A DNA stretch of 64,000 bases from Bacilli bacterium (GTDB lineage Bacteria; Bacillota_I; Bacilli_A; RFN20; CAG-826), in the NCBI GenBank assembly GCA_045628045.1, contig JAZQOV010000002.1, positions 106,826 to 170,825 of the forward strand. Reading direction: 5' to 3'. Of this stretch, positions 15,864 to 35,312 are shown piece after piece (position 1 is the stretch's first letter; every line of letters begins with the position of its first letter). The notes below the pieces were generated by a model. It was not told the origin of the DNA, searched no databases, and worked only from the letters and a program-made list of their open reading frames with translations. Both the position numbers and the translations under genes were made by a program.

Positions 15864-15994
15864 TCCACACCTTTTTTATAATGTTGAAATAGTTTTTTGC
15901 CAATAGACCGAATAGGTTGTATTGGTGAATTTTAATAAAACTCTTTCATATTATGAATACATATGCTATCATATGTTTGCAAAAGGAATCAGTT

Positions 15995-16450
15995 ATGGCA
16001 TTTAATCAAAGAGAATACACAAACGATTACAACAAAAATACATATAAAATGTATCCTTTTAGGGTGAAGCAAAACTCTACCTCAGTTATTGAGAAGCTTA
16101 AATCTGTGCCAAGTATGAACGCATATGTTCTCTCACTAATTGAAAATGACATTAATCCAGGTGTATTAACTCTTAAGATGATAAAAGATCGTATTTTGCC
16201 TGTGTTAAATAAGCATAACATTAACGAGGTTTATTTGTTTGGGAGCTATGCTCGTGGAGAAGCAAATAGGGATAGCGATTTAGATATATATTGTGAAAAA
16301 GGTGATATAAAGTCATTCATTGATCAAGAAATGCTTGAAGATGAGCTTAAAAACGCATTAGGGAAGGATGTTGATATTGTTTTTATTGGATCCAAGATGG
16401 ATGATTTCTTTAAATCACAATTAGAAGGAGATAAAATTAGAATATGTTAA
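15995..16450 (+). CDS. Minimal nucleotidyltransferase antitoxin (MntA-like) with N-terminal RHH-like extension
   Basis: LFGSYARGEA..DSDLD and KDVDIV motifs; AAGGA RBS. Confidence 0.85.
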   Translation: MAFNQREYTNDYNKNTYKMYPFRVKQNSTSVIEKLKSVPSMNAYVLSLIENDINPGVLTLKMIKDRILPVLNKHNINEVYLFGSYARGEANRDSDLDIYCEKGDIKSFIDQEMLEDELKNALGKDVDIVFIGSKMDDFFKSQLEGDKIRIC

Positions 16451-16788
16451 CAATTAAAGAACAAGGCTTATTGCTCGGAATAATAAAACACTGTGATAAA
16501 ATTCTTGAAAAGATTAATAGAATTACAAGAGTTCAATTTGATGAAGACGAGGATGTTATTCAGATTGTCTGCTTTAATATTTTGCAAATTGGAGAACTTG
16601 TAAAACATTTTGATGTTTCTTTCACAAGCAAATTTAATGAAGTCCCATGGAGTTTAATTGCACGCATGAGAGATAAAGTCGCTCATGGATATGGAACAAT
16701 TGATATTGATATAGTGTGGGGAACCGCAACAAAAGATATATCTTCTTTAAAAGCCTATTGTGAAAAGATTCTTAAGGAAAATATATAA
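16444..16788 (+). CDS. HEPN RNase toxin (HepT/DUF86)
   Basis: IGELVK, VPW..IARMRDKVAHGY (RxxxxH), IDIDIVW; overlaps the MNT gene. Confidence 0.88.
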   Translation: MLTIKEQGLLLGIIKHCDKILEKINRITRVQFDEDEDVIQIVCFNILQIGELVKHFDVSFTSKFNEVPWSLIARMRDKVAHGYGTIDIDIVWGTATKDISSLKAYCEKILKENI

Positions 16789-16794
16789 TACTTA

Positions 16795-16924
16795 ATAAAA
16801 GATAACACCTCTAATCTAAAGCATCGAACGTAATTTATAAGTGAAATACTAGTGTTTTCTTTTATCTCTTTTGCATATTCTATATGCGAGCGTACTTAAG
16901 TAGTGAACTTCATTTGCAAAAGAG
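16795..16924 (+). repeat. Spacer repeat R1 (hairpin A) plus hairpin module T
   Basis: aaagataacacct...gcatcgaacgtaatttataagtgaaatact-agtgttttctttt, then ctcttttgca...gagcgtacttaagtagtgaacttcatttgcaaaagag. Confidence 0.9.
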
Positions 16925-17059
16925 CTGCTAGAGGATGATAACACAGTAAAATTGAATTGCATAATAAGTATGATGTGTTAAAATAGCACTAGAAAATTTG
17001 AATAACTAAGTTAAATAAATTTGCAAAATTAAAATGATATATTATTGCAATTAGAGAAA

Positions 17060-17839
17060 ATGAATAGAAAAACATTCGAAGGATCAATTACTATTGAACA
17101 TGAAGGCATAACTTATTATGTTTCAGATCTTTCCTATACAATTTGGGAAGATGATTCTTTTGAATTCGTGTTTACTCCTAATTATTTTGTTATTGATTTA
17201 CTTCCAACAAGCGTTTTTCAAGGAATTCCTGGATTAAATCTTGATGAAAGAAAAGAAAAGTATGTTCGCAAAAACATAATGCCGACATTTATTTCTGAAA
17301 GAGTTCCTCAAAAAAATAGGGAAGATTTCTTTGAACTTCTAGAAGAAGCTGGTATGGACTATTTAAATCCAATTGAATATTTGCTAAAAACAAAAAAACA
17401 ATATAGCGGTGATCCTCTCAAACTTAAAGAAAAGAACGTTAAAACATTAGTGAACATAAACGAATTAGCAGTTAAAAACAACACATTTGGATTAACAAAA
17501 ATAATTTTGGATAATCTCGCTAAAGGAAATGATGTTTTCTATGAGGGATCAATTATTGATAACACTAATAGAAAAGCATTCTTTAATGTTCTTCATGCTT
17601 TATATGTAAAAACTTTAAAGGGAAGAGAAGCTACTAGAAATGCAGGAATAGAAAAAGCAAGACAATCTGGTAAATATAAAGGAAGAAAACCAGTTCAAGT
17701 TGATATGGTTTTATTTAATGAATCACTCAAAGATATTTCTAATGGAGTAATTAGTGTTTCAGAAGCATGTAAAAGACTTAATATCTCCGTGGATAAATTC
17801 TATCGTGTTAGAAAAATAGTTAATAAAGAATCTAAGTAA
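17060..17839 (+). CDS. Hypothetical protein: HipA-N-like region plus resolvase-type C-terminal HTH (no catalytic recombinase domain)
   Basis: FISERVP..NREDF..LL..AG....P..YL; C-term GIEKAR..GKYKGRKP...VSEACKRLNISVDKFYR. Confidence 0.6.
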   Translation: MNRKTFEGSITIEHEGITYYVSDLSYTIWEDDSFEFVFTPNYFVIDLLPTSVFQGIPGLNLDERKEKYVRKNIMPTFISERVPQKNREDFFELLEEAGMDYLNPIEYLLKTKKQYSGDPLKLKEKNVKTLVNINELAVKNNTFGLTKIILDNLAKGNDVFYEGSIIDNTNRKAFFNVLHALYVKTLKGREATRNAGIEKARQSGKYKGRKPVQVDMVLFNESLKDISNGVISVSEACKRLNISVDKFYRVRKIVNKESK

Positions 17840-17949
17840 AGATAACACCTCTTAAGCATTGAACGTAATTTATAAGTGAAATGCTAGGTGTTTTCTTTTA
17901 TTCTTTTCTCATTAGAGAAGCGTATCAAGTTCTTGCAGGTCAAGAAAAA
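17838..17949 (+). repeat. Spacer repeat R2 (hairpin A plus hairpin B)
   Basis: Near-identical to R3/R6; overlaps the stop codon of the preceding gene. Confidence 0.92.
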
Positions 17950-18040: not shown

Positions 18041-18046
18041 ATAGTC

Positions 18047-18598
18047 ATGATTTACACAACGAAACAACTTCTTAAAAAACACAAAAACAACACAAGTATT
18101 AACAGAATGGAGAAATCCGGAAAACTTTTTAGGGTTGCTCAGGGTGTTTATTCTGACGAACAAACTAATGTTGCGGATTTAGAAAGCATATTTCTTGTGT
18201 ATAAAAATGCTATTTTAACTAACGAAAGTGCATTTGCCTTTTATGAATTAACCGACAACATTCCTGAAAAGTACTCAATAGTAACTCCACTTAAGTCACA
18301 TAGAATTAGCTTTAAAGGTGTTGAGCAAAGCTATATGCAAGATTCAATTTTAAAAATTGGATTAACTAAAGCAAAAACAGAGTATGGATATATTAATATA
18401 TATGACAAAGAAAGATTACTTGTTGAATTGTTTAGACTCCGCAACAAGTTTTCTTATGAGCTTTACAAAGAAGTAGTGGCAAATTATAGAAAACTTGCTA
18501 TAGAAAATAAAATAGATTTTCTTAAGGTTTTTAAATATTGCGATAAGTTCGCATATGGCAAGACGATAAGAAAGATTATTGAGGAGGTAATCATATGA
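18047..18598 (+). CDS. abiEi: Type IV TA antitoxin AbiEi family
   Basis: GKLFRVAQGVY, ESAFAFYELTD.IP, IYDKERLLVE. Confidence 0.85.
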   Translation: MIYTTKQLLKKHKNNTSINRMEKSGKLFRVAQGVYSDEQTNVADLESIFLVYKNAILTNESAFAFYELTDNIPEKYSIVTPLKSHRISFKGVEQSYMQDSILKIGLTKAKTEYGYINIYDKERLLVELFRLRNKFSYELYKEVVANYRKLAIENKIDFLKVFKYCDKFAYGKTIRKIIEEVII

Positions 18599-19401
18599 AA
18601 ACAATCAGTGAACTTGTAAAAGATAAAATAAATCTTTTTAATATGAATAGAGTTGAGGCAGAGAGCTATGTTTGCCAAGAAATTATAATCAATAAAATTG
18701 CCAAATCTGAGCTTGTTGATAGAACATTCCTAAAGGGTGGTGTTGTGTTGTTTAACATGTCAAAGAATGAACGCCGCACAACAAGAGATATTGATTTTGA
18801 TTTAGCACACTACGATATATCCACAGAAGAATCTATGAAAAACTTGGTTTACATGTTAAATAAAAGAGACTCTGAATACGTTGTTACCTACATTAAAAGT
18901 GATCAGCTACATCAAGACGATTATAAAGGCAGAAGACTTTATCTCAAAGTGTCTGATAAAAGTGCTACATTAAAAATTACGATTGATGTGGGTGTTCACA
19001 CTTTATTTGCAATTAATCAACTTGATTCAATTTTTACATTTAATAATGACAATAACAAAGTAGTGGTTAAAGTGAACCCACCTGAGCAAATGATAGCAGA
19101 GAAACTTTATTCTTTAGCAAAACACACTATAGTGTCACAAAGATATCGTGATCTTTATGATGTATATTACCTTCTAAAGAACACTAAAGTTGAAAAGAAG
19201 GTAGTTCGTCAATGTTTTGAATTGCTTTTAATTAATAATATGCATGGTTTTAATGATTTGAGTGATGTTATCTCTAGAATTGATGAAACCCTCTCAAATG
19301 AAGTGTTTAAAGAAAGAACTGAAAATGCTTCTAAGAAATGGATTGATATTGACTATCTTACTTTAAAAGAAACAATTCTCAATTTGTTATATAACATCTA
19401 A
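18595..19401 (+). CDS. abiEii: Type IV TA toxin AbiEii nucleotidyltransferase
   Basis: FLKGG, RTTRDIDF, EQMIAEK, RYRDLYD. Confidence 0.9.
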   Translation: MKTISELVKDKINLFNMNRVEAESYVCQEIIINKIAKSELVDRTFLKGGVVLFNMSKNERRTTRDIDFDLAHYDISTEESMKNLVYMLNKRDSEYVVTYIKSDQLHQDDYKGRRLYLKVSDKSATLKITIDVGVHTLFAINQLDSIFTFNNDNNKVVVKVNPPEQMIAEKLYSLAKHTIVSQRYRDLYDVYYLLKNTKVEKKVVRQCFELLLINNMHGFNDLSDVISRIDETLSNEVFKERTENASKKWIDIDYLTLKETILNLLYNI

Positions 19402-19408
19402 TAACTTT

Positions 19409-19522
19409 AAAGATAACACCTCTTAAGCATTGAACGTAAGTTATAAGTGAAATGCTAAGGTGTTTTCTTTTATCTCTTTTCTTGATAGAGAAGCGTAGCA
19501 ATTTCTCGTATGACAAGAAAAG
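19409..19522 (+). repeat. Spacer repeat R3 (hairpin A plus hairpin B)
   Basis: aaagataacacctcttaagcattgaacgtaagttataagtgaaatgctaaggtgttttctttt plus ttttcttgatagagaagcgtagcaatttctcgtatgacaagaaaa. Confidence 0.92.
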
Positions 19523-19790: not shown

Positions 19791-20600
19791 TTAAATTTTG
19801 ATTCCTGAAATGTCTAAGAAATTATCGATTGAGAATCCTGGCATGTAATTACATGTGGATATGTCCGTTCCAAGTTTGTTAAACGACTCCCCAAAATGAT
19901 ATGCCTTATCATCAACAAACAAATATCTATCGTGAAACTTATCAACCTTTATTACCTTATATTTGTCTGATTCAAATGATTCGTTCTTTGGATGAGTAAT
20001 TACCACAACCTTTGCTGGGCTGTGTAATAAAATTTCATCAAATGTGTGATCAAAATAGTTATCAATGATTACTATTAATTTTTTAGCACTTTTCAATATT
20101 TCTTCTAACATAAACAAGGCATCAATACGATTGGCTTCTTTTAGTGTTAAGGATTTGTTTTGGAAATCTTTAATTTCGTAAATTTGATTTTGAAGATCAA
20201 TAATTTTTTCTTTGCATTCTAAGCAAGAAAAGTTGGGTTTTGCAAAAATGTATTGTTTTAAAACATAATTTGCCCATTGTCTAAATAACGTTCCTCTCTT
20301 TCCGTTCACTCTATAGCCCACAGATAAGATAACATCCAGGTTATAAAGGTCAATTTCTCTAGAGACGTTTCTTTCACCTTCTAATTGAACAGTTGCATTT
20401 TTTGCAACAGTTGAAATTCTTAATAGTTCGTTGCTGTTATAAATATTATTTATGTGTCTAGAAATTGTTGATTTATTCTTTTCGAAAAGAGCAGCAATAT
20501 CATTCAATGAAAGCCATACAGTATCTTCCGTTGGAGAAACATTAACTGGCAATGAAAAGTCTCCATCTTTGAATGTTAAGATTTCAAATTTTTTGTCCAT
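19791..20600 (-). CDS. RhuM-like DNA-binding protein with C-terminal PLD-like domain
   Basis: TVWLS...IAALF, YNLDVILSVGYRVNGKRG..FRQWA; C-term IIDNY, FHDRYLFVD..YHFGES. Confidence 0.8.
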   Translation of the reverse strand: MDKKFEILTFKDGDFSLPVNVSPTEDTVWLSLNDIAALFEKNKSTISRHINNIYNSNELLRISTVAKNATVQLEGERNVSREIDLYNLDVILSVGYRVNGKRGTLFRQWANYVLKQYIFAKPNFSCLECKEKIIDLQNQIYEIKDFQNKSLTLKEANRIDALFMLEEILKSAKKLIVIIDNYFDHTFDEILLHSPAKVVVITHPKNESFESDKYKVIKVDKFHDRYLFVDDKAYHFGESFNKLGTDISTCNYMPGFSIDNFLDISGIKI

Positions 20601-20773
20601 TTTAGGTTCCTCCTTATATTAAAAATAACAATCTTTTAATCGAACAAGATTGATGCGGTTTTTGCATCTGTGTAAATTATAATATGCACGCATTGAAAAG
20701 ACAAGCATAAATTGAAAATATTTTATTTATTTTTTGCATAATGTTAAAATGATGCAGTAAGGGGAAAATAGGT

Positions 20774-21106
20774 ATGGATAAATTAGAGGAAGAAATTTCA
20801 GAACGTATTAAAGAAATGATGGAAAAGCGTAAGGTCACTCAAAGTGATCTTGCTAGTGAGCTTGGAGTGCACCAATATGACATTTCACGCATGTTAAACG
20901 GCAAGCCTTTTCCATCTATTTCTCAATTAAAATTGATAGCGAACTATCTTGATTGTTCTTTGTATTATCTAATTGGAATACAAGAAGAATCATATCGTGA
21001 GCTATCACCTGAAACTAGAAAGATAGCTAATGCATATCAATGCGCTAATGAAACCATTAAAGCAGTAGTAGATCTGGTACTCACAAATAAAAAGATAAGT
21101 AAATAA
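20774..21106 (+). CDS. XRE-family HTH transcriptional regulator
   Basis: TQSDLASELGV....ISRM..G..P....L..IA.YL.CSL.YL. Confidence 0.88.
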   Translation: MDKLEEEISERIKEMMEKRKVTQSDLASELGVHQYDISRMLNGKPFPSISQLKLIANYLDCSLYYLIGIQEESYRELSPETRKIANAYQCANETIKAVVDLVLTNKKISK

Positions 21107-21171
21107 AAAAGATAACACCTGATTAAGCATTGAACGTAATTTATAAGTGAAATGCTAAGGTGTTTTCTTTT
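21107..21171 (+). repeat. Spacer repeat R4 (hairpin A only)
   Basis: aaaagataacacctgattaagcattgaacgtaatttataagtgaaatgctaaggtgttttctttt immediately after the stop codon. Confidence 0.92.
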
Positions 21172-21228
21172 GCTATATATGATAAAAGTTATAATATATT
21201 TATAATTTAGTAAAGGCACTTTATTAAT

Positions 21229-22413
21229 ATGGTTAATTTAATTAGAAGAATATTTATTAAGAATTACAAAGACATTAATGATCCTATTGTACGTGAGAAG
21301 CACGGCACAGTAGCATCAATATTTGGAATGGTAATGAATGTTATCTTATTTGCGATTAAATTTGTTATTGGTTTAATTGCTTCATCAATGTCAATTATTT
21401 CTGATGCTTTAAATAACTTAACAGACCTTTTTAGCAACATCGCTAGTCTGGTTGGTTTTAAAATTGCAAATAAACCTGCAGATAAAAAACATCCTTATGG
21501 TCATGAAAGAGTGGAATACATTACTGGAATGATAATTTCATTCATCATCATTGCTGTTGGTATTGTGCTTGGATACACTGCAGTGAACAAATTAATCACC
21601 AAAGATGTCGTAACTACATTCTCTATTTGGTCATTTGTCATTCTTGGCGTATCAATATTTGGCAAGATCTTGCTTGGATTATTTAACAAAGGAATGGGAA
21701 AAGCAATTAACTCAGTTTCTTTAAAAGCAAGTATGCAAGATTCATTTAATGACGCAATATCGACATCACTTGTTTTAATTGCCGCTATTATTTCCTACTT
21801 TGTAGGTGAATCAGTGTGGTGGCTTGATCCTGTTATATCAATAGCAATTGGTGGTTTTATTGTTTATTCGGGAATTAAGCTCGTTTTTGAAACAGCTTCT
21901 CCATTAATTGGACTTTCTCCAGACACTGACTTTGTTAAAGCGGTGGTGAATGATGTACTTTCATTTAAAGGAGCACTTGGAATTCATGATATCGTGTGTC
22001 ACTCATATGGCCCTACTAAGAAGTTCATAACACTTCATGTCGAGGTTGATGGATATGAAGATGTTATGAAACTTCACGATATGATTGATAACATTGAAGA
22101 ATGCATCGCTAAAAAATATAACTGTGAAATCACAATTCACATGGATCCAATAGACACTAAAAATAAAGAAATCCCTGTTTTAAAAGAAAAAATAGAAGAT
22201 ATTCTTAAACATATCTCACAGGAGATAACATTCCATGACTTACGCCTTGTGAATGGCCCAAGTCACACGAATGTGTTATTTGATATCGTTATACCTCCGG
22301 TTAAAGACATTAATAAAGATGAAGTCATTAATGCTTTAATTAAAGGCGTTAAAGAAATAAACCCTAAATATAACTTAGTGATTAAAGTAGATAACTCATA
22401 CACCCATGGATAA
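21229..22413 (+). CDS. Cation diffusion facilitator family transporter
   Basis: SDALNNLTD, KPADKKHPYGHERVEY, DSFND, GIHD...H.YGP. Confidence 0.92.
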   Translation: MVNLIRRIFIKNYKDINDPIVREKHGTVASIFGMVMNVILFAIKFVIGLIASSMSIISDALNNLTDLFSNIASLVGFKIANKPADKKHPYGHERVEYITGMIISFIIIAVGIVLGYTAVNKLITKDVVTTFSIWSFVILGVSIFGKILLGLFNKGMGKAINSVSLKASMQDSFNDAISTSLVLIAAIISYFVGESVWWLDPVISIAIGGFIVYSGIKLVFETASPLIGLSPDTDFVKAVVNDVLSFKGALGIHDIVCHSYGPTKKFITLHVEVDGYEDVMKLHDMIDNIEECIAKKYNCEITIHMDPIDTKNKEIPVLKEKIEDILKHISQEITFHDLRLVNGPSHTNVLFDIVIPPVKDINKDEVINALIKGVKEINPKYNLVIKVDNSYTHG

Positions 22414-22414
22414 C

Positions 22415-22526
22415 AAGAAAACACCTCTAAAGCATTAAACAAAATTCATAAGTGAAATGCTAGGTGTTTTCTTTTATCTTTTTTCTTGATAGAGAAGCGT
22501 AGCAAGTTCTCGTAGATCGAGAAAAG
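22415..22526 (+). repeat. Spacer repeat R5 (hairpin A plus hairpin B)
   Basis: aagaaaacacctctaaagcatt...aagtgaaatgctaggtgttttctttt plus module B. Confidence 0.9.
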
Positions 22527-22735: not shown

Positions 22736-23152
22736 ATGAAATTCTTAAGATGTAAGAAATGTGGTCAGATCGTCGGTGTTGTAAAAGACACGGGGGTCCC
22801 AGTTATTTGCTGTGGTGAGACAATGGAAGAACTCATCCCTCATGTTGATGAAAAGGGATTAAGTGAGAAACACATTCCAGTGTACGCAGTAAAGAAAGGC
22901 AAATGCATCGCCAAAATAGGTATGATCCCTCACCCAATGACAGATGATCACTATATTGAATGGGTCGCACTCGTCACAAACAAGGGGAACCAAAGAAAAG
23001 AACTTGAACCTGGTAAATCCCCTCGCGCAGAATTTTCTCTCGATGAAGACGAGGTTGTAGAGGAAATCTACGCGTATTGCAATCTCCATCAGCTTTGGAA
23101 ACTTGATTTAAAGAAAAACAAAGACTGTGGATGCAATATCAAAACAAAATAG
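22736..23152 (+). CDS. dfx: Desulfoferrodoxin / superoxide reductase
   Basis: CKKCG...CCG, EKHIP, HPM...HYIEW, YAYCNLH. Confidence 0.92.
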   Translation: MKFLRCKKCGQIVGVVKDTGVPVICCGETMEELIPHVDEKGLSEKHIPVYAVKKGKCIAKIGMIPHPMTDDHYIEWVALVTNKGNQRKELEPGKSPRAEFSLDEDEVVEEIYAYCNLHQLWKLDLKKNKDCGCNIKTK

Positions 23153-23328
23153 TTCAAGTTTTATATACATAGATTTTCTCTCCTTAAGTGAACCGTTCCT
23201 CTTATCTATTACCCTCGTAGGAGGACGGTTCACCTAGGAGATAAGTGGTGAAAACTAACCAGAGTGAACGTACATCGTAGTGAACTCACATACTTCACCA
23301 CCTGACAAAAAGGAAAGGAAGATAACTC

Positions 23329-24363
23329 ATGAAAAGAAACGTAATTAAAGCATTAGTATATGACTCCAAAGGATTCGTTGAAGAATTTTTCGAGATTGCT
23401 AACAAAGGAAGAATTAAGTTTAGTTACACTAGTGATAAGCTCAATGCTAACACTGTTAAAACAGCAGAAAGCTACGACACGATTGTGGCATTTGTTAACG
23501 ACACTATAGACAAAAGCGTAATAGACGCACTAGTAAAACAAGGAAAGAAAGCAATCTTCTTGAGAAGCAGCGGATTTAATAATGTTGATCTTAATTACAT
23601 TGATGGGAAATTTAAAGTATTTAGAGTTCCTGCCTATTCACCAGAAGCAGTAGCGGAACACGCCTTTGCGCTAATACAAACTTCAAATAGAAGGATACAT
23701 AAAGCTTATATTAGAACTAGAGAGTTCAATTTCTCCTTAGACGGGTTGATAGGGAATAATCTAAATAATAAAACCATCGGAATTATTGGAACTGGGAAAA
23801 TAGGGCGAGTCATGATTGATATCGCTAATGGATATAAAATGAATGTAATTGCCTATGATCCATACCCAGTTCCTGATCCAACTAACCTTAGTTACGTTTC
23901 TCTTCCTGAGTTACTTTCTAGAAGTGACATTATTTCACTACATTGTCCTTTAATTAGTGACACCAAGTACTTGTTAAATAAGGAAACCTTAGCGCTCACT
24001 AAGAAAGGCGTAATGATTGTGAACACTTCTAGAGGAGGCCTTATTGATTCTAGAGCGCTCCTAGATGCGATCAAATCTCGTCATGTTTCGAGTGCATGTT
24101 TAGATGTCTACGAAGAAGAAACAAATATCTTTTTTGAAGATAAGTCAAATCACATTCTAGATGATGAAGTACTGAGAGATTTAATTTCCATGCCAAATGT
24201 GATTGTAACTTCTCATCAAGGCTTCCTAACTCATGAAGCTTTAGAAAATATTGCTAACACTGTTATTAGTAACATCATCAGTTTCTTTGATGGTACCCCT
24301 AGAACTGAAAATGAAGTTATTTTAAGTGGTAGTAGCAAACAAAATGAAAGGAAATCAAAATGA
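23329..24363 (+). CDS. ldhA: D-lactate dehydrogenase (D-2-hydroxyacid dehydrogenase family)
   Basis: FVND, GFNNVD, VPAYSPEAVAEH, GTGKIG, SLHCP, NTSRG, LDVYEEE, TSHQGF. Confidence 0.88.
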   Translation: MKRNVIKALVYDSKGFVEEFFEIANKGRIKFSYTSDKLNANTVKTAESYDTIVAFVNDTIDKSVIDALVKQGKKAIFLRSSGFNNVDLNYIDGKFKVFRVPAYSPEAVAEHAFALIQTSNRRIHKAYIRTREFNFSLDGLIGNNLNNKTIGIIGTGKIGRVMIDIANGYKMNVIAYDPYPVPDPTNLSYVSLPELLSRSDIISLHCPLISDTKYLLNKETLALTKKGVMIVNTSRGGLIDSRALLDAIKSRHVSSACLDVYEEETNIFFEDKSNHILDDEVLRDLISMPNVIVTSHQGFLTHEALENIANTVISNIISFFDGTPRTENEVILSGSSKQNERKSK

Positions 24364-24602
24364 GTAAAAGACAAAGAGCAAGGTATTTTAGATTTATGGG
24401 GTTTGTAACATGCATTGTATCAATCGCTATGATTGTTGGTCTTGTGATCACCATTGTTGGTCAATTCAAAGATGCTGTAAAAGCATGGCCAATCATCGCT
24501 AACTTCTTAAATATCTTAGCAGTACTTGGAGTAGGCTTAGGACTTACTAACTTATTCTATTCTCATGCTTGTGTATTAGATGATGAATACTGTGCTAGAT
24601 AA
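24360..24602 (+). CDS. Small 2-TM membrane protein
   Basis: GAAAGGA RBS, translationally coupled to ldhA; resembles the 14119 ORF. Confidence 0.7.
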   Translation: MSKRQRARYFRFMGFVTCIVSIAMIVGLVITIVGQFKDAVKAWPIIANFLNILAVLGVGLGLTNLFYSHACVLDDEYCAR

Positions 24603-24762: not shown

Positions 24763-24898
24763 TGCCGCTGGAATAGGGTATATATGAGACTATTGATATA
24801 CGTCTCAATGTGAAGTCTATTTAGTCATACGACTTCACTTGTATATTGTTGAGAATTATAGAATAAAAGGTAGAATATAGGTAGAAAAGAGGCTGCTT

Positions 24899-26848: not shown

Positions 26849-27055
26849 TTATTAGATATTATTTCCTTTAGTGGTTAATTATATTTGATATAAATATTGG
26901 TAGAGCCTGTTATTTAAATACTTAGAGATTAAGCACCATTTACATATGGTGCTTTATTTTCTCTTTTGCAAAAGAGTCGGTAATTAATGCTATTTCATTA
27001 CGTATTTATGAAGTGGCTATCTAGGTGAGATACGCCACATTGGTGAAGTCTATTT
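26844..27055 (+). repeat. Spacer repeat S1 (modular)
   Basis: ttaattattagatattatttcctttagtggttaattatatttgatataaatattggtagagcctg; collapsed T module ctcttttgcaaaagag; gtggc..gccac; closely matches S3. Confidence 0.9.
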
Positions 27056-27156
27056 ATTGCTCGTGTATCCACTAGCGAGCAACAATACGAATTCACCCCA
27101 CTGGGTAGGGTAATATATGGTGTTTAATGAAATGAATTATGGTGTATAATAAAGAA

Positions 27157-28311
27157 ATGACTAATTCAATTTTAATAATTGGAAACGGCTTCGACCTAGC
27201 TTGTAACTTAAAGTCAAAATTTTCAAATTTTTTAACTGATGAAAAACTTGAACAATTACGTGCTAATCCATACTCTTGTGAAAATTTCTGGTATTTATTA
27301 TCTGCATTAAAATTCAATAAAAATGCTGACAACGAAGAAAATCATATATTCCCCATTCTTGCAAAAGACGATTATCTTTGGATGGATATTGAATCTTTGA
27401 TTAAAGAAGTTTCAACTTCTAAATTACCAAGGTATTACGCACAATTTTTCAAAGAAAATAATTATTTAGCGCTTTTCACTTCCGCTTTTGTGAATAGAAA
27501 TAATAATATGTTTTTGGCTAAAGATAATGAATTTTCTTACTTACGAATGTTTTTTATAAAAAGATTTCCCAATATTTTTGAGCAAACAATCAATATAATT
27601 GATTTCTTGAAATTAGAATTAGAAAAATTTGAAAGAACATTTGCTGCATATTTAATTGAGTCAATTAGAACAACTGATAATTATTACGAAAAAGCATATG
27701 AACTTTTTGGTTTTTTGGGTTGCACTGGAGTGAATCCTGATTTTTTGATTGATTTTAATTACACACACGATGACGAAAAATTTAATGAATTATTTGGAAA
27801 CGATAATAGAATTTTTATTCATGGTTCGGTTAAAAATAAGCCTATTATCGGATTCGATTCTTCTAATATTTCTAGTGATGCACCCGTGTTATTGAGTAAA
27901 GCATGGCAGAAAATGTCATCAAATATTAGTGGTGTAAAGCTGCCACAATTTGACGAAGAATTTGAGATTAAATTTTTCGGTCATTCACTTGGTGAACAAG
28001 ATTACTCATATTTTCATGCATTATTTGATCGCTATGATATTTATAATAAAAAGGTTTCTCTCTGTTTTATCTATAGCCGATATAAGGATGATGAAAAAGA
28101 GAATGATGAAATAACAAAAACATATTGTAATGATGTTTATAAATTATTAAATGATTATGCATTGAGAAGTGGAAAAGAAAGTAATTACAGAACATTAATT
28201 AGTAGATTACAAATAGAAAACAGGTTACACATTTATGAATTAAAAGAGTATGTAAAAAGTCATTCTTTTTCCGAACAATTCAAAGAAATAAAAGCAAAAG
28301 GAAATGAATAA
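27157..28311 (+). CDS. AbiH-family (SIR2-like) abortive infection protein
   Basis: LIIGNGFDLA, W.DIE, DFNYT, IHGS, FFGHSLGEQDYSYF; start placed after TATAAT-N6. Confidence 0.82.
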   Translation: MTNSILIIGNGFDLACNLKSKFSNFLTDEKLEQLRANPYSCENFWYLLSALKFNKNADNEENHIFPILAKDDYLWMDIESLIKEVSTSKLPRYYAQFFKENNYLALFTSAFVNRNNNMFLAKDNEFSYLRMFFIKRFPNIFEQTINIIDFLKLELEKFERTFAAYLIESIRTTDNYYEKAYELFGFLGCTGVNPDFLIDFNYTHDDEKFNELFGNDNRIFIHGSVKNKPIIGFDSSNISSDAPVLLSKAWQKMSSNISGVKLPQFDEEFEIKFFGHSLGEQDYSYFHALFDRYDIYNKKVSLCFIYSRYKDDEKENDEITKTYCNDVYKLLNDYALRSGKESNYRTLISRLQIENRLHIYELKEYVKSHSFSEQFKEIKAKGNE

Positions 28312-28460: not shown

Positions 28461-28656
28461 TATTATATTAGGAACCTTATGGTTCCTTTTATTTTAATTA
28501 TTAGATATTATTTCCTTTAGTGTTCAATTATATTTAATATAAATATAAGATAAGGTAAATAAGAATTAATAGGTAGCAATTATTGCTACATTTTTAATCT
28601 TTTTTGCAATTAATAAATGTGAGCGTAGTTTACTAGTGAACAGATTTGCAAAAGAG
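28461..28656 (+). repeat. Spacer repeat S2 plus module T
   Basis: taggaacc-ttat-ggttcctttt attttaattattagatattatttcctttag...; tttttgca...gagcgtagtttactagtgaac..tttgcaaaagag. Confidence 0.88.
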
Positions 28657-28750: not shown

Positions 28751-28882
28751 AGAATATAAGAAGAGTCATATCGTGAACTAGCACCCGAGACTAGAAAGAT
28801 AGCTAATACATATCAATCTACTAATGATGCAGTCAAACGAGTTATTAACTTAGTACTATTGAATAAAGACTCAATCAATTGA
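28751..28882 (+). pseudogene. 3' remnant of an XRE gene paralogous to 20774-21106
   Basis: RI*EESYRELAPETRKIANTYQSTNDAVKRVINLVLLNK versus GIQEESYRELSPETRKIANAYQCANETIKAVVDLVLTNK; HTH half missing, in-frame TAA. Confidence 0.85.
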
Positions 28883-29095
28883 TAATGATAACAGCCGATT
28901 AAGCACTAATAAAATTTGAAAATGGATGCAAGTGTTGTTTGAACAAACGAAATTTATTAACATAAAGTGATAATTACAGGGAATTTCCTTTATAAGGAGG
29001 AGTGTTTCAAATTTTAGTCCTTTTTCAATTTTGTGAAAAAAACTTGCACAAAAATGAATAATCGTGTAATCTTTAGATAATATCGAGGTAAACAC

Positions 29096-30355
29096 ATGAT
29101 TGGTTCGTTAACATTTAATAACTTTCGTTTCTTTGAACAGTTTCAAACAATGTCGTTTTTTGCTGATTTAAGAACTAGAAAGTTGGTCTCCAATTCTCTT
29201 AAAATTTCAAATAAGAATGTTTTAAAAACAACAGCAATTTACGGTTCTAATAATTCTGGCAAATCTAATGTTGTTGATCTTTTTTATAGATTAAAAATGG
29301 TGTTAGAAGGAAAAGATGTTGATTTTAACACAAAAGCGTTAGGCGATAGTGAAACCGTTGAATTAAGCATTACTTTCAATAATAATGACGGGGATGGTTG
29401 GTTTTGTTATTCGTTTAGTTTTAATCATGAAAAAAGATCCTTTCTTAAAGAAAAATTCTCATCTATTTCTTATTATGATGAAGGCGCCCCCTTTGAAAAA
29501 GTAATTTTTGAGAAGGATGTTGAATCTTTAAGATTAATGATTCTTGGTGAGGAAAAATCTGAATTATTAAATGTTATTACATCAAATAAACCTTTGCTGT
29601 ATACTTTAAATTTAGAAAAAGGAAATTTTTCTGAATTATCAATTTTTTTAGAAAAAATTAAAAAATTATCTGACTCCATCATTGTTTTAAGGATGTTTAA
29701 TATTCCTATTCAAAATACAATCAATGCTCTAAAAGGTTCTGACAATAACAAAAAGAACTTTATTAAAGAATTCGTTAAAAATGCTGATTTAACAATCGAT
29801 GATTTTGATTATACTCAAAAACAACTTGTAAATTTTGAAAAACCAAAAACGGTAAACGAAGACGCTTTAAAAGAAATTGCACAACTTGAGGAAGCGTTAC
29901 ATTTAGGAACAAAGTATAAAAATAAATTTGTTCCTTCTATTTTGTTCGATTCTTCGGGAACAAAGAAGATTCAAGCAATTGCGTCTTTTATCTATGATTC
30001 TATTTTTGAAGGAAAAACTCTTATTATTGATGAATTAGATAATGGTCTTCATTATAAACTTAGCAGAGCAGTTGTAAGTGCATTTAACAATTTAGCAAAT
30101 AAATCTGGACAATTGATTTTTACAGCACATGATTTACTTTTAATCAGCAATAATAATTTGATGAGAAAAGACCAAATTTATTTTGTTTCTAGAGAAAATT
30201 TGAATTCTAGATTGGTTTGGCTTAGAGATTTAACCGTGGCATCCGGCGGGCCAAGAGATATGGAAGTATTAGTTAAACGTTATAACCATGGTGATTTTGT
30301 TCGTACTCCTTCCCCGTCTTTTATTGATAATATTTTCGATATTAAAGCTAGGTAA
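29096..30355 (+). CDS. AAA_21-type ATPase (AbiLi/RloA-like)
   Basis: NNFRFF, AIYGSNNSGKSN, DSSGTKK, IIDELDNGLH, QLIFTAHD, RKDQIYFV. Confidence 0.85.
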   Translation: MIGSLTFNNFRFFEQFQTMSFFADLRTRKLVSNSLKISNKNVLKTTAIYGSNNSGKSNVVDLFYRLKMVLEGKDVDFNTKALGDSETVELSITFNNNDGDGWFCYSFSFNHEKRSFLKEKFSSISYYDEGAPFEKVIFEKDVESLRLMILGEEKSELLNVITSNKPLLYTLNLEKGNFSELSIFLEKIKKLSDSIIVLRMFNIPIQNTINALKGSDNNKKNFIKEFVKNADLTIDDFDYTQKQLVNFEKPKTVNEDALKEIAQLEEALHLGTKYKNKFVPSILFDSSGTKKIQAIASFIYDSIFEGKTLIIDELDNGLHYKLSRAVVSAFNNLANKSGQLIFTAHDLLLISNNNLMRKDQIYFVSRENLNSRLVWLRDLTVASGGPRDMEVLVKRYNHGDFVRTPSPSFIDNIFDIKAR

Positions 30356-30360
30356 TTAAA

Positions 30361-31059
30361 ATGGAAGAAAAGTACTGTGTTCATTTAATAGTTGAAGGAT
30401 TTGAAGAAGAAAAGTTTTTCGAAGTTGTTCGAGCTTTTGGAGTAAATGAAAATATTAAATTAACAGTACAAAATGCCGATGGAGCACATAAGATTGGCGG
30501 AAAATATCAGGACGCAATTTCTAATGATGAGTATGATATTGTGCTTTGTGTTTATGATGTCGATTATAAATATAGTATAAAAGATTCAGCATTTAATTAC
30601 GTAATGAATGAACTTGTTGAGATTACTGGTTGTAGCTTAGATGCTATGAAGATTAGTTATTGTAATAACCCAAATATTTTAATTTGGTTTTTAGTAGGGA
30701 CTGAAAAGGTTTCCGACATGGAATTTGTATACGCTTCAAAACCAAAAAACACAAAAGCATTGCATAACCATTGGGAAGAAATTGGAAAAGGCATAGAAAA
30801 GGACACAACTTATAAGACCTATGAAGCTCGTGATTATCAATTAAATATTATGAGAGATTCATATTTATATGGTCATTATAGTTATGACAAAATTTTAAGT
30901 AATGGAGTAGAATTTGATACCGATTTAAAAAGTAGCTCTATGTCTTCAACAATGTATAAATTATTAGAAGCACTAAAAATTGGTGATAAGAAATATTTTG
31001 AAAGTTTAAAGGAGAAAAATAATGACAAACCTAACACTTCAAGAAAAAGAAAAAATTAA
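30361..31059 (+). CDS. RloB/AbiLii-like TOPRIM partner
   Basis: LIVEGFEE..FF, CVYDVD, NNPN..IWF; directly downstream of the ATPase. Confidence 0.65.
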   Translation: MEEKYCVHLIVEGFEEEKFFEVVRAFGVNENIKLTVQNADGAHKIGGKYQDAISNDEYDIVLCVYDVDYKYSIKDSAFNYVMNELVEITGCSLDAMKISYCNNPNILIWFLVGTEKVSDMEFVYASKPKNTKALHNHWEEIGKGIEKDTTYKTYEARDYQLNIMRDSYLYGHYSYDKILSNGVEFDTDLKSSSMSSTMYKLLEALKIGDKKYFESLKEKNNDKPNTSRKRKN

Positions 31060-31237: not shown

Positions 31238-31457
31238 TGAATTTATTGTAGAGTGTGTGAACGGGCGGCTAAGCTCATTGTTTCTTTTTAACCAATTGAA
31301 AATAAAGATAGAAATGGTTAGTTTATGAATTTTTTTAATTTGTTTCCAGTCGGTTAAGACTTGTTTTATGCCGGTTTATTAAGCAACAGCAATTATTCAT
31401 TTGTTTATGATTGCGGATTATAAAATCAAATTTAATTAACACGCAAGTATATCTTTT

Positions 31458-31737
31458 TATTAGGAACCTTAGGTTCCTTTTATTTTAATTTTTAGATATT
31501 ATTTCCTTTAATGGTTAATTATATTTGATATAAATATTGGTAGAGCCTGCCACTTAAATACGCAGGACTCAAGCACCTTCTTTGTATGTTGCTTTTTTTC
31601 TCTTTCGCAATCCATATAAGCGAACGTACTGAAGTAGTGAACTTCATTTGCAAAAGAGTTGGTAATTAATGCTATTTCATTACGCATTTATGAAGTGGCT
31701 ATCTAGGCGAGATACACCATATTGGTGAAGTCTATTT
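31458..31737 (+). repeat. Spacer repeat S3 (most complete modular copy)
   Basis: ggaacc/ggttcc hairpin, S core, gagcctgc..gcaggactc, aagca..tgctt, module T, gtggctatctaggcgagatacaccat, ggtgaagtctattt. Confidence 0.9.
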
Positions 31738-31972: not shown

Positions 31973-33994
31973 TTATTCATTTTCGTTTGAATTTGAAAAG
32001 TAGTGTTTTTTATCTTTTTTTACAAAAACCGATTTGATTCCAAGTAATTTTACTAAATTAGCATTTTTAAATCTTGTTGAAGGCGTTCTTAACCAATAAT
32101 ATAGCATTACTAATAATACATTTATTAAAACAATCGAACCAACAAACCAGAATTTTGGAGTAGTAATTGCATCGAACATTAAGCCGCCAATAGACATAGG
32201 CGGTTTATTAAAGTAAGTGATATCGTTAACTTTATAGCCATCAATAAATATTTTAGATATCATTCCAAACCCAAACATTGTTACTGCTAAACTAGCAACT
32301 GTGAAAGATATGTTTACCCAATGGTAAAATCTATCGTTTGATATGTTTGTTTCACGCCACGAAAATTTGTTTTGATTTTCTAAATCTTCAACAATAGTAT
32401 CAATGTTTAATTTTTTGAAGACGGTTTTAGAGAGATCAAAATTATTTTTGAAACCATAATAGATTATAGAATACTTTCTTTCAATTTCGGAAAATAAATA
32501 CGAAATTATTTTATTCTTTTTTCTAATGCCGCCATATTTTCTATTATATTCAGAAGACAATATTTTAATGTAGGCTAGTAAAGAAGCATAACTACAGCAT
32601 TGACAAATGTATTCATAATCCCACAAAACATAGTAGCGAAATTTGTGTGATGCCGGTTCAATAAGCTTCATTCGCGTGTTAACATCAGTTTGAATATTAA
32701 GAGCCTGTTCAGCTAGATTGATTACAGTGTATGTGAATTGACCATCTTCATAAAATAGATGTTGTGTGTTTTGGTTAATCAAATCAAAATTTTTGATATT
32801 AGCCTTTCTTCCTTTAAATAAAGTATATGGGTCATAGTTATGATGATTACCTACGAGTAAACTTAAATAGTTAAAGAAAGTAGTTCCTAATTTTTTCTTT
32901 TTGTGAGCTTCTAAAATATAGAAATTTAAATATAAACATTTCCATACTTTAATTTGTTTATTATAATTTTCAATTAAGTTTAGAATTTGAGTGTCTTTTG
33001 CATCAAGCTTTGGGCATAATTCAAATGAATTAAAAGGCTCATGATTGTTTTTGTTGTCAGATTTTTTATCAAAAATATTTTTATAAATGATTACCTTTCC
33101 ATTAAAATTTAAGAATGAATTTAAATCAATAACAGAGAATATTTTTGGCAATTTGTTCATATAAGAATTAATGTTATCGGCAGTTTTAACCGCTAAAGGA
33201 ACATAGTTTAAAATGTTCTTTTTTATATCCAACTTAAATAAGCATGAATCATTTTGTTGGTTATTATTTTGTTTCCCAGATTGGATTTTTTTGCTCGACA
33301 CAACAGAAAAATTTAAAAGACCATCGCAAGAAACAAGAATTAATGCTTTTGCATCATTCGCCAAACAATCGCTCAAATCGCAAACCGAATCCATACTCTT
33401 TGCTTCTTTTATAATTTTTTCCAATTGCAACGCTAGTTTATTGTTTGTTTTTTCATTATTATCATTTCTGATTCTTTGCCAATACTTAATCCTATTTCTA
33501 ATGTTCTTATTAAACTTTTTTATTTTATTAACATTAGAACAATTTGCATTATAAATCTTTTTTAGCTTATCAATACCATCAACAACCCTTAAATACTTCT
33601 TATTACATTCAGAATATGTAAAATCTGATTTAAAATAGTCGAAATATTCGAAAATCAATTTATATTTTTCTTTTAAGAAATCGTCCCTTTTCTTTTTGTC
33701 AGATTCCTTTTTGCACATATTATCAATACTGTATTCAAACAATACAAAATCATTTTTAGCCAATTCTTTAATGCTATAGTTATCGCCTTTACTATATCTG
33801 AGAACTTGTTTTCCGGAAGCTATTTCGTCATCAAAATATTTGGTAATAAACTCATTAATAAGCAAGTTATTTTTAGACCCTAATGGACCAGCATTTTCCA
33901 TACACTTAGCTAAAATTTCCTCATACTTACAAGTATAAATAAATGTTTTAGTGCAAAAATATATTGGTTCTATTTTTAATTTTACATACGCCAT
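31973..33994 (-). CDS. Hypothetical N/K-rich protein with C-terminal TM pair (CorA-like topology)
   Basis: 673-aa ORF; helical region followed by two hydrophobic segments. Confidence 0.6.
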   Translation of the reverse strand: MAYVKLKIEPIYFCTKTFIYTCKYEEILAKCMENAGPLGSKNNLLINEFITKYFDDEIASGKQVLRYSKGDNYSIKELAKNDFVLFEYSIDNMCKKESDKKKRDDFLKEKYKLIFEYFDYFKSDFTYSECNKKYLRVVDGIDKLKKIYNANCSNVNKIKKFNKNIRNRIKYWQRIRNDNNEKTNNKLALQLEKIIKEAKSMDSVCDLSDCLANDAKALILVSCDGLLNFSVVSSKKIQSGKQNNNQQNDSCLFKLDIKKNILNYVPLAVKTADNINSYMNKLPKIFSVIDLNSFLNFNGKVIIYKNIFDKKSDNKNNHEPFNSFELCPKLDAKDTQILNLIENYNKQIKVWKCLYLNFYILEAHKKKKLGTTFFNYLSLLVGNHHNYDPYTLFKGRKANIKNFDLINQNTQHLFYEDGQFTYTVINLAEQALNIQTDVNTRMKLIEPASHKFRYYVLWDYEYICQCCSYASLLAYIKILSSEYNRKYGGIRKKNKIISYLFSEIERKYSIIYYGFKNNFDLSKTVFKKLNIDTIVEDLENQNKFSWRETNISNDRFYHWVNISFTVASLAVTMFGFGMISKIFIDGYKVNDITYFNKPPMSIGGLMFDAITTPKFWFVGSIVLINVLLVMLYYWLRTPSTRFKNANLVKLLGIKSVFVKKDKKHYFSNSNENE

Positions 33995-34007
33995 AAATAT
34001 AACACCC

Positions 34008-34652
34008 TTATAAAATTTCTATTTTAATATTATCATTACCAATTTCACTAGTAAGATCGTAATGGTTAATAGTGTCATAAAATAAACCAAATTTCAAACT
34101 TTTACTATTAGATAACAATGTGTAATCATCTTTATTTATTTTTACTTTGCGATTTACATTATTTTCATCGTCCAAAAAATTGAAATAGTAATCAGTCCCA
34201 TCTGTTGAAAAATAATTTAAATTTTTTAAATTATTACATTCGAACTCAATATAATGCGTCTTTCTAAAAGGATTAATGAATTTAATTGAATCAAATATAC
34301 ATAAAATGGAACTCTTTAGTTTTTCTTCAATAACATGATAGTCAGTAATTTCCATTGTTACATTGAATTGCATATCATGAATCATGCTTTCTGTGTAAAA
34401 AGATAACTTATCTGAATCCTTTTCTCCGCAGGAATCTGGAATATTAATTTTAAGATTTTTTGAATTCTTTTCATTTGGGTTTGGAGCATAAAAATAATTA
34501 TCACCGTATTTAAAAAGTATATCTGAATAACTAAAATTAAAATGTTCTTTAATGTGTGTTTTTGTGTTATCGTGACAGTTGTTAACTAAAGTAGATGTAA
34601 AGATTATGAACCAAGTTTTAAATTTCATACATTCTAATATACTTATTAACAA
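34008..34652 (-). CDS. Hypothetical protein, possible N-terminal membrane anchor
   Basis: 214-aa ORF co-oriented with 31973-33994; start uncertain. Confidence 0.5.
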   Translation of the reverse strand: MLISILECMKFKTWFIIFTSTLVNNCHDNTKTHIKEHFNFSYSDILFKYGDNYFYAPNPNEKNSKNLKINIPDSCGEKDSDKLSFYTESMIHDMQFNVTMEITDYHVIEEKLKSSILCIFDSIKFINPFRKTHYIEFECNNLKNLNYFSTDGTDYYFNFLDDENNVNRKVKINKDDYTLLSNSKSLKFGLFYDTINHYDLTSEIGNDNIKIEIL

Positions 34653-34962
34653 TTACTTTGTAAACAATATTTCTTTTATTAATTAAAAAAATTCTAATTT
34701 CCAAGAATCTTTCCGTTGATCCTATTTATGCGTGTTAATTTTTGTGAATGAAGTACACTTACGTTTGTTAAGTTGCTTATGACGGGCAAATCTAAACCTA
34801 CATTCGAGATATCGCACAAGAATTCAAACATCGCTTTTGCAATAGACACTACATATTATTAAACCGTTATTAATAAATAATATTACTTATAATAATATTT
34901 ATGTATAGAATAGAGACACTATAAAGAAATATAAGATTAGTTACACAACTGGAGTATATGAC

Positions 34963-35201
34963 TTATTATATTAGGAACCTTAAGGTTCCTTTTATTTTAA
35001 TTATTGGATATTATTTCCTTTAGTGGTTAATTATATTTGATATAAATATTGGTTGAGCCTGCTATTAAAATACACAGAACTCAAGTGGCTAATTGATACG
35101 CCACTATGTGAAGTCGATTAGTTTATACGACTTCACTTTTTATTCTCTTTTGCATGTTTATAAGTGAACGTACTTAGTAGTGAACTTCATTTGCAGAAGA
35201 G
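34963..35201 (+). repeat. Spacer repeat S4 plus modules
   Basis: taggaacct-ta-aggttcctttt, S core, gtggc..gccac, gtgaagtcg..cgacttcac, module T. Confidence 0.9.
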
Positions 35202-35312
35202 CCGATGCTGATAGTTATTTTGAGATTATTTTTGCAGGAGAAACTTATGGTGATTTATGGTAAAATTTTTAGTATAATTTAAATATAATATTTAATTTAA
35301 TAGGAGAAATGT

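Follow-up and report, generated by a model that had tools for sequence, protein, structure and literature searches.

Accessory genes can be shuffled through recurring intergenic modules, as described for the PeSL cassettes of T4-type phages, in which stem-loop/promoter modules between genes play this part (Arbiol et al. 2010, PMC2839356; Comeau et al. 2014, PMC4122927). We observe a comparable layout in the 1.07-Mb genome (G000, 96% complete) of a gut bacterium, where anti-phage and stress genes stand in a row of units with a few recurring DNA hairpins between them, over 19 kb behind wecB and within a surface-sugar gene cluster. As in the PeSL of those papers, recurring intergenic modules lie between unrelated accessory genes in a hypervariable region, with no integrase identified. 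The array differs from the PeSL described there in being located on a bacterial chromosome, with defence cargo and several module families in mosaics; its repeat R has no promoter, and its modules T and Q are not terminator-shaped. Whereas PeSL exchange points are described as falling at modules, here several fall at module edges and two outside (15925, 34921), and whereas mini-circles are described for PeSL, the array is known from assembled contigs. A literature search, mostly outside subscription journals, found no paper on this array.

In the reports of Cury et al. (2016, PMC4889954) and Neron et al. (2022, PMC9024848), integrons are very rare in Firmicutes (almost absent in the latter) and were not found in Tenericutes, so that the locus bears on how rows of defence genes are kept and reshuffled there. 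With integron arrays and CALINs as described, the array shares gene-then-hairpin periodicity, a single orientation, stop-flush sites, toxin-antitoxin and anti-phage cargo, and strain variation; unlike them, it has no IntI, its R repeat fails the R''/R' boxes and has no unpaired spacer, units of two or three genes, with promoters of their own or with reverse genes, are common, and there is no single crossover. Its output is integron-like, namely the gain, loss and replacement between strains of single units of toxin-antitoxin, Abi and PARIS-like genes, in a 1-Mb genome and with no linked recombinase. In pdif modules, short accessory units, often toxin-antitoxin pairs, lie between repeated, alternating sites without a local recombinase; the array likewise has short accessory units between repeated sites and no local recombinase, but its sites are direct and no dif-like site rises above background.

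The rAID-1 clusters of Bacteroidales (Ross et al., bioRxiv 10.1101/471110) are likewise found in gut bacteria and combine co-oriented defence genes of low GC with intergenic motifs that recur. They are described with a XerD-like recombinase at the 5' end, whereas no Xer-like recombinase lies at the array head within the window (the whole 64,000-nucleotide stretch analysed), the 5' neighbour being wecB, and the spare recombinase of the host acts on its own inverted sites. T and Q resemble the palindromes of REP/BIME and RAYT systems (Di Nocera et al. 2013, PMC3733652) in being hairpins with an unpaired foot that lie beside other palindromes in mosaics. Unlike the elements described there, the modules are low in copy, confined to accessory islands and devoid of a GTAG or CGTC tag, and no Y1 (HUH) transposase was found in G000, in its sister species G017 and G033, or in G016.

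Units and hairpin modules of the array

The features of the array are as follows.

14541..15863, +, HTH-fused UDP-GlcNAc 2-epimerase (wecB-like), fixed left anchor of the array
15953..16788, +, Unit 1: MNT nucleotidyltransferase and HepT, a toxin-antitoxin pair
16797..16865, +, R1 hairpin, degenerate copy
16867..16924, +, T module: long stem, tandem G.A, bulged G, GC-rich 3' foot
17045..17839, +, Unit 2: orphan partner of a HipA-like kinase
17838..17948, +, R2 and Q module
18047..19401, +, Unit 3: AbiEi and AbiEii
19408..19521, +, R3 and Q; second, degenerate Q at 19726-19786
19791..21106, Unit 4: RhuM-family gene (-) and divergent XRE gene (+)
21107..21173, +, R4
21229..22413, +, Unit 5: CDF cation efflux transporter
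22413..22525, +, R5 and Q
22736..24602, +, Unit 6: desulfoferrodoxin, D-lactate-dehydrogenase-like gene, small membrane protein; T-type core at 23264-23286
24649..24838, +, R6, Q and U hairpin
24899..26848, +, Unit 7: ATPase-nuclease fusion, PARIS AriAB-like
26844..27055, +, S1, downstream hairpin and V module
27139..28311, +, Unit 8: AbiH
28461..28656, +, terminator-like hairpin, S2 and T
28752..28910, +, relic: XRE 3' end, then 5' half of R
29096..31059, +, Unit 9: AbiLi ATPase and RloB/AbiLii
31452..31737, +, terminator-like hairpin, S3, T and V
31973..34652, -, Unit 10: two proteins of no known family, 673 and 214 aa
34964..35201, +, terminator-like hairpin, S4, U and T; right end of the array, ahead of polysaccharide genes

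The cargo names given in a first-pass annotation of the sequence hold (MNT/HepT, AbiEi/AbiEii, RhuM, XRE, CDF, desulfoferrodoxin, D-2-hydroxyacid dehydrogenase, AbiH, AbiLi/RloB), and the six R and four S copies that it had placed in one orientation are all found, all on the + strand (R at about 16797, 17838, 19408, 21107, 22413 and 24649; S at 26844, 28461, 31452 and 34964). They do not form a genome-wide REP or terminator family, since BLAST of R and S on the whole genome matches the array only (E down to 1e-36); a covariance model of R likewise finds 6 sites genome-wide. The same annotation had five R copies and S1 starting within about 10 nt of a stop codon, and we observe stop-to-AGA gaps of 11, 0, 9, 3 and 2 nt for R1 to R5, all on + just behind ORFs, and an S1 that overlaps the ATPase stop; the gap of R6 is 49 nt. 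Its broader claim that each unit is followed by a conserved repeat is strict for R and S1 only, because the nearest stop is 156 nt from the S2 hairpin and 222 nt from the S3 hairpin, and S4 comes after the 5' end of minus-strand genes. S2 to S4 each start with a called terminator. The term hairpin repeat suits R, with folding z-scores of -4 to -7 in four of the five copies folded (R1 only -1.4), but not the S region, where S4, the one copy folded, gives -1.5.

R has the polarity of a terminator, although the terminator scan passes over its long stem, and none of its 20 stem pairs shows a double-sided change, that is, R is without covariation. Identity among R copies is 89% within G000, 91% among G017/G033 and 85% between these lineages, the last matching coding orthologues (83-86%); loop lengths are lineage-specific (60-64 versus 65 nt). 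What follows R varies by copy (T, Q, S, a promoter or a wecB 3' end).

Additional modules (T, Q, U, V) turn every spacer into a mosaic, T being present in four copies, all in the array, and Q in four to five, with one more on contig C11. The polarity of T and Q is opposite to that of terminators, and they are placed flush behind the T-tracts of other hairpins, T being found behind the wecB, adhE, dfx, R and U hairpins. Their common non-Watson-Crick core, a pattern defined from these very copies, has 11 of its 13 genome matches in the array, all on +, the only strand on which the G.A pairs and bulged G can form. The GC-rich 3' foot (78% GC versus a background of about 30%) has a pyrimidine as first base in 20 of 20. 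In Rfam searches tRNAs alone reach the gathering score, with three matches in the array at chance level; the promoter scan, with matches also at chance level (114 versus 113), is uninformative.

Variation among strains and species

Strains were compared through contigs assembled from public sequencing runs. These contigs join across units or replace them, and content and order also differ between species, in agreement with the proposal that the units behave as cassettes. In one strain contig Unit 1 (MNT-HepT) is swapped for 508 other bases, with the branch at 15925. One strain contig leaves the array precisely where R6 starts (24649) and runs into a different hairpin. AbiE and CDF contigs from independent runs are of unit length (1.3-1.6 kb), strain contigs often stop inside repeats, and a deletion between Q and the degenerate Q shares nine letters. 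Breakpoints lie at 15925, at both edges of R (5' at 24649, 3' at 24711), at the Q edges and at 34921; several of these are module edges, two (15925 and 34921) lie outside R and S, and there is no single crossover point. Separately, depth is near zero on MNT-HepT, ATPase, AbiH and AbiL in run X1, and on AbiE, ATPase, AbiH, AbiL and the 673-aa gene in run X3; neither is counted as evidence of absence.

Both sister species carry R at the same locus behind wecB, with different cargo. Their arrays contain tandem repeats of the wecB 3' end (about 230 bp), two copies each, 94-98% identical to their own wecB and each between R and T, the footprint that would be expected of single-crossover integration or unequal exchange. 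The RhuM-XRE-R unit is intact at four positions in three species with differing neighbours (once in G017, twice in G033). In two genera a T-headed unit with a phosphoesterase is found, and the two terminators ahead of it differ.

A second array in relatives has another hairpin family, X (26 bp), which surrounds the same CDF cargo and shows compensatory changes, and in G033 the homologue of the Unit 5 CDF gene is bracketed by X. As for R, stop codons are flush with the hairpin. The X repeat, at about 36 bp, is short for RecA, and two of its ten stem pairs are changed on both sides (5 of 500 shuffles).

The repeats occur in only 3 of 37 genus genomes, two of the three being near-sisters. None of the wecB regions of 18 other genus members has R, T, Q or S (36 had a match; several contigs end within 3 kb), and 160 wecB loci of other taxa give no module at E below 0.01. 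Exact R patterns have no match in genome, metagenome or viral contigs, the T pattern none in viral contigs, and the modules none in plasmids. The R pattern occurs in 2 of 401 genomes of the order and the T pattern in 3 of 401 of the family; under stricter filters, with 33-34 candidates scored per genome, the R model is found in 1 and the T model in 2 of 150.

Recombinases and explanations of the array

The idea that the responsible recombinase lies elsewhere in the genome found no support in the search. G000 has three tyrosine recombinases, two of which are taken for XerC/XerD from their sequence and context. On TIGR02249 (cut-off 265) the third reaches 104 bits, in a match of two pieces, and it does not track the array: its gene, on contig C6 (in G017, at about 70 kb from the array), occurs in the array-free G003 and was not found in the array-bearing G033. 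It was rejected as cassette enzyme, as it adjoins a 2.5-kb segment that has its own 31-bp inverted repeats and stands in opposite orientations in G000 and G003, and the best that its site reaches in the array is 20 of 31, equal to background. In G000 (96% complete), IntI, Y1 transposase, resolvase, large serine recombinase, IS110, reverse transcriptase and Rpn were not found, Rpn occurring in only one of five genomes; GIY-YIG matches proved to be a frame of 594 aa, the size of UvrC, and a contig that is phage-like. IS200/IS605-type genes occur in two of five relatives, and the ends of such elements in G008 and G422 are unlike R, T or Q.

Integron attC sites carry the boxes RYYYAAC ... GTTRRRY, with an unpaired central spacer beside the R box, then the L box with extrahelical bases. 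None of the six R copies fits RYYYAAC or GTTRRRY, AAC and GTT alone being kept, and in the R consensus fold ACCT is paired with AGGT directly after AAC/GTT, where attC has its unpaired spacer. The likely host dif (C3:11509, near a xerD-like gene) has a best match of 18/28 in the array, compared with 17-21 in genome tiles.

The explanation we favour, and give about an even chance, is that of a strain-variable, PeSL-like and integrase-free row of accessory units, reshuffled by host recombination through the hairpin modules. Units would be gained, lost and reordered by homologous and microhomology-driven recombination, with no dedicated integrase. R (A-tract, stem, T-tract) would terminate transcription of each unit; with two R, R-Q or R-wecB3'-T blocks on its flanks (60-370 bp, 80-97% alike), a unit would loop out, and incoming DNA with the same blocks would replace the flanked unit. 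A new gene would enter the pool once, by a microhomology join of its stop-codon/A-tract to the A-rich edge of R, and would afterwards move by homology, turnover being sustained by selection for changing anti-phage repertoires beside the capsule locus. We favour this because of the tandem wecB 3' copies, the likeness of R within lineages, the spread of breakpoints, relic neighbours (an XRE end with half an R), the varied sequence after R and its lack of covariation, the presence of RecA and ComEC genes in the host genome, the failure to find the tested recombinase families, and the PeSL precedent. If so, the PeSL principle of T4 phages would extend to chromosomal defence islands. The case comes from comparison of assembled contigs and sequences rather than from a directly observed circle or recombination event, and homology by itself does not account for the first acquisition of R by so many genes, R starting within 0-11 nt of the stop in at least seven unrelated ones.

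That placement of R, together with the T/Q structure, the T-headed phosphoesterase unit and the short, covarying X, points to a structure-reading enzyme. In this view, which we consider possible but doubtful, the hairpins would be genuine sites of recombination or insertion, and an enzyme supplied in trans, unrecognised in our searches, would read them as folded single-stranded DNA. Each unit would have T or Q at its left end and R at its right end, and units would insert at the T-tract behind a hairpin; since R would regenerate the target, the array would grow in tandem and in one orientation. Such an enzyme would fit modules that all lie on one strand, the only one on which the G.A pairs and bulged G form, stop codons flush with both R and X, one CDF gene family bounded by R here and by X in G033, the covariation of X, the range of hairpins behind which T is found and the GC-rich T/Q foot. 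It fits poorly with breakpoints at more than one position, an R without covariation, the lack of a candidate in G000 among eight families tested, IS200/IS605 ends of another kind, and the failure to find an autonomous element with these ends in G000, G017 or G033. It would amount to a new cassette machine. We think it unlikely that this small-genome Bacilli clade has a cassette system which is new, works without an integrase and is the functional counterpart of integrons in Gram-positives. In such a system hairpins folded from single-stranded DNA (R, X and T/Q leaders, with tandem G.A or a bulged base) would be read by an unrecognised enzyme, which would build stop-flush cassettes and dock them behind terminators, one defence pool being spread across arrays with different site families.

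Quite improbable is a passive insertion hotspot, where terminator and promoter fragments were copied as tandem duplications and deletions arose locally, the repeats being by-products with no part in channelling exchange. The restriction of the repeats to three genus genomes, the strain breakpoints at 15925 and 34921, the distance of S2-S4 from stop codons and a between-species R divergence equal to that of coding DNA agree with it, but the intact RhuM-XRE-R unit among differing neighbours, the unit-length AbiE and CDF contigs, the strain departing exactly at the R6 edge and the same layout at the X locus do not. The reading of R as an unusual attC in a CALIN, or of the spacers as dif-like sites used by XerC/D, the first-pass annotation having called the layout typical of integron and dif-module arrays, is very improbable and largely refuted, for although R measures 57-61 nt between its AAC and GTT triplets, starts at stop codons and is bulged, and homologues of XerC and XerD are present, its copies fail both boxes, the bases beside AAC/GTT are paired, IntI is missing and dif matches equal background.

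Cargo of the units

As the repeats mark unit boundaries, unannotated units, namely the 673/214-aa pair of Unit 10 and the 747- and 1186-aa genes of the relatives, are candidate new anti-phage systems. The Unit 7 ATPase (649 aa) matches AriAB (PARIS) in PADLOC with E 1.2e-92. Homologues of dfx-ldh in G017 and G033 lie outside the array and are without R. The ORF at 17045 (Unit 2) was rejected as a recombinase: its Atlas neighbours are automatically named 'recombinase family', yet it has no Y.R.S or DRL.R motif and no PDB match. The C-terminal half of its protein is resolvase-like, with an HTH and without the serine-recombinase catalytic motif, and a 45%-identical homologue in G029 sits after a HipA_C gene.

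Architecture of the array

The source genome (1.07 Mb, 33% GC, 96% complete, translated with table 11) is one of a family of small genomes, and DNA of the window, which forms the end of contig C2, is present in gut metagenomes. Several nucleotide-sugar enzymes encoded in the window (9944-15863 and 36385-37110) carry N-terminal XRE-type HTH domains.

Features of the window
15864-35312: array, between an HTH-fused wecB-like epimerase gene (left) and a long polysaccharide gene cluster (right)
16795, 17838, 19409, 21107, 22415, 24648, + strand: R hairpins R1-R6
26844, 28461, 31458, 34963, + strand: S hairpins S1-S4
17045-17839: orphan HipA-partner gene, resolvase-like C-terminal half plus HTH
28752-28910: relic, XRE 3' end plus half an R

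The cargo labels of the first-pass annotation are upheld for MNT-HepT, AbiEi/ii, RhuM with XRE, CDF, dfx-ldh-membrane protein, AbiH and AbiLi/RloB; the ATPase unit is PARIS AriAB-like (E = 1.2e-92), and the remaining cargo comprises the orphan HipA partner and two proteins of no assigned family. A homologue of the HipA partner comes after a HipA_C kinase in one relative (G029, L262:8811-10441), and in the public sequencing run X1 the gene is preceded by 1,216 other bases.

All six R and four S copies were confirmed, and a whole-genome check gave zero matches to either family in the rest of the genome, confining both to the array. R consists of an A-tract, a stem of ~60 nt and a T-tract, with folding z scores of -4 to -7 in four of the five copies folded and -1.4 in R1. 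That a repeat follows each unit, as first proposed, holds closely for R1-R5, which start 11, 0, 9, 3 and 2 nt past the preceding gene's stop codon, and for S1, which touches one, but the S2 and S3 hairpins lie 156 and 222 nt from a stop; R6 lies 49 nt downstream of the preceding stop. The 46-nt spacer before R6 (24602-24648) looks like the 3' part of a further ORF with its stop at the R6 edge, and is possibly a relic. S is a weaker site than R, since the S4 region has a fold z score of only -1.5 and S1 alone touches a stop.

The spacers are mosaics of modules, which beyond R and S include T (4 copies), Q (4 full and 1 degenerate, with 1 more on contig C11), U and V. T and R have a common core of tandem G.A pairs either side of AC/GT, plus a bulged G; this pattern, derived from these very copies, matches 11 times within the array, always on the + strand and once inside an ORF, and twice in the remaining 1.05 Mb. 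T and Q run from T-tract through stem to A-tract and are therefore not terminator-shaped on either strand; they are placed directly after a stop codon or another hairpin's T-tract, and end in a GC-rich foot (78% GC) whose first base is a pyrimidine in 20/20 of the copies listed, these copies being related. Double-sided changes number 0/20 in the R stem and 1/17 in the T stem, the latter not above shuffles. The lone Q of contig C11 lies in a small accessory islet (21460-25500) with three direct repeats of ~80-200 bp, and is followed by a RhuM-like 3' relic; the islet also holds a 352-aa gene (Fic-like by eye) and an HTH plus YafQ-like pair.

Variation among relatives and strains

R occurs in 3/37 genomes of the genus, namely the source genome and the sister species G017 and G033, whose shared proteins are mostly 90-99% identical, so that the two together make little more than one comparison. 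In both, the array stands behind the same wecB, R starts 3-9 nt past stops, and the cargo is different: AAA_14/DUF4143 with SWIM, PIN-RelB, nSTAND3 and a 1186-aa gene. The RhuM-XRE-R unit has a single occurrence in each of the source genome and G017 and two in G033, with differing neighbors. Both sister species carry dfx-ldh upstream of capD without R, and AbiE and CDF homologues elsewhere (68-69% nucleotide identity) likewise lack R. Identity of R copies is 89% within the source genome and 91% among those of the sister species; from one group to the other it is 85%, compared with 83-86% for coding orthologues. Each sister species shows twice the order R, a copy of the wecB 3' end (final ~230 bp), and T, these copies being 94-98% identical to the resident wecB. 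In G017, a broken IS110-like transposase (family assigned by eye) lies directly after the last array Q (C34, ~69700-70900).

None of 18 other genus members examined has R, T, Q or S modules at wecB. Behind the wecB cluster of the relative G030 (L264:7927-10905), a 195-aa lipoprotein gene and its upstream region occur in four tandem copies. Wider searches yielded single T copies only, directly after the adhE terminator in G016 (L246:2113-2180) and directly after the dfx terminator in G422, a member of another genus (L278:1298-1364); the metallophosphoesterases 3' of these T copies are related (64% identical).

Contigs of 6 public runs from 4 studies were compared with the array, using only joining contigs, and those of runs X1, X7 and X3 show that array units vary between strains; X1 and X7 come from one study, and either could be near the source sample. 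A 10.8-kb X1 contig follows wecB to 15925, continues with 508 other bases and the R3 region, and then jumps to the RhuM end, where Q and the degenerate Q have 9 letters in common. A 32-kb X1 contig starts with R-Q; next come ~6.7 kb that do not match the window at the 90% level, then S3 with the 673/214-aa unit, and the contig exits at 34921; the ~6.7-kb stretch, nearly the length of the window's ATPase-AbiH-AbiL segment, may represent diverged homologues. A 4.7-kb X7 contig reads R, 1253 nt, R-Q and 2118 nt, and passes at 24649, the R6 5' edge, into a different hairpin. An R-S junction not present in the source genome is seen in X3, on short loose ends and with an ambiguous source R copy. The expected variation between strains is thus borne out; the joints are spread over several module edges and two further places outside R and S.

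A second, cassette-like array with hairpin X

In G033, the CDF homologue lies between copies of a direct repeat, X; this 26-bp hairpin has a single bulged base. One gene kind is thus flanked in sister species by hairpins of different families. Ten X copies occur in 3/37 genus genomes (G008, G017 and G033) and zero in the source genome, and X bounds a second cassette-like array.

Loci of the X array
G033: C28:97973-99283 (L302, L314)
G017: C16, C17, C22 (L301, L305, L309, L311)
G008: C2 (L316)

The cargo includes CDF, an HTH plus YafQ-like pair and 8xMP, with YhcG nuclease genes nearby. Three X copies overlap a TAA at, or shortly after, an ORF end. Across nine aligned copies, 2/10 stem pairs changed on both sides in a compensatory manner, against 5/500 shuffles; sequences that are related may pass such a control.

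Proposed recombination mechanisms

Host recombination through repeat blocks of 60-370 bp, which would reshuffle units, is the simplest account of the array, and we give it an even chance of being correct. It would account for the relics and the scattered joints as well as for the tandem wecB 3' copies and the lineage-specific R loops. The source genome encodes RecA and ComEC. Recombination of the same kind has been described for PeSL modules, the repeat-bounded cassettes of T4-type phages (PMC2839356, PMC4122927). The array resembles PeSL regions in layout and was not assigned to them by the tests made here.

Host recombination explains poorly that R and X lie flush with the stop codons of so many unrelated genes, that T and Q have retained their core and foot on a single strand, and that X covaries despite being so short. 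These features point instead to an unrecognised enzyme reading the hairpins, which we consider possible though clearly less probable. Searches of the 96% complete source genome for a Y1 transposase, resolvase, large serine recombinase, IS110, reverse transcriptase and Rpn found none, and yielded no enzyme for the R array, known from three species. Its tyrosine recombinases number three, two of which read as XerC and XerD; the third is present in the source genome, G017 and G003 and was not found in G033, which has an array. A passive hotspot seems unlikely.

An integron or dif-module identity is very improbable. The third tyrosine recombinase is not IntI, and R, which keeps AAC and GTT, fits neither box of the attC consensus in 6/6 copies; the likely host dif, near the XerD-like gene, matches the array at 18 of 28 positions at best, which is background. 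The array is like an integron array in output, and is not one by these tests. Integrons are reported to be very rare in Firmicutes, with none found in Tenericutes (PMC4889954, PMC9024848). Our literature search found no description of the R/S array.

The third recombinase was also considered as the array enzyme and rejected: it has its own 31-bp inverted repeats, a site that matches the array at background only. These bound a 2.5-kb two-gene segment next to the recombinase gene that is inverted in the source genome relative to G003 (98% identical). Recombinase and segment, situated where the capsule island ends on its far side, are likely an invertase switch.

Loci of the Xer-like recombinase and 2.5-kb segment
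Source genome: C6:203390-206875
G003: C43 (L240)
G017: C34:1-1302

Among the other contigs of the source genome, C4, C5 and C12 are phage-like and have ends in common, and C4 (2077 nt) carries a GIY-YIG gene and identical 56-nt ends.
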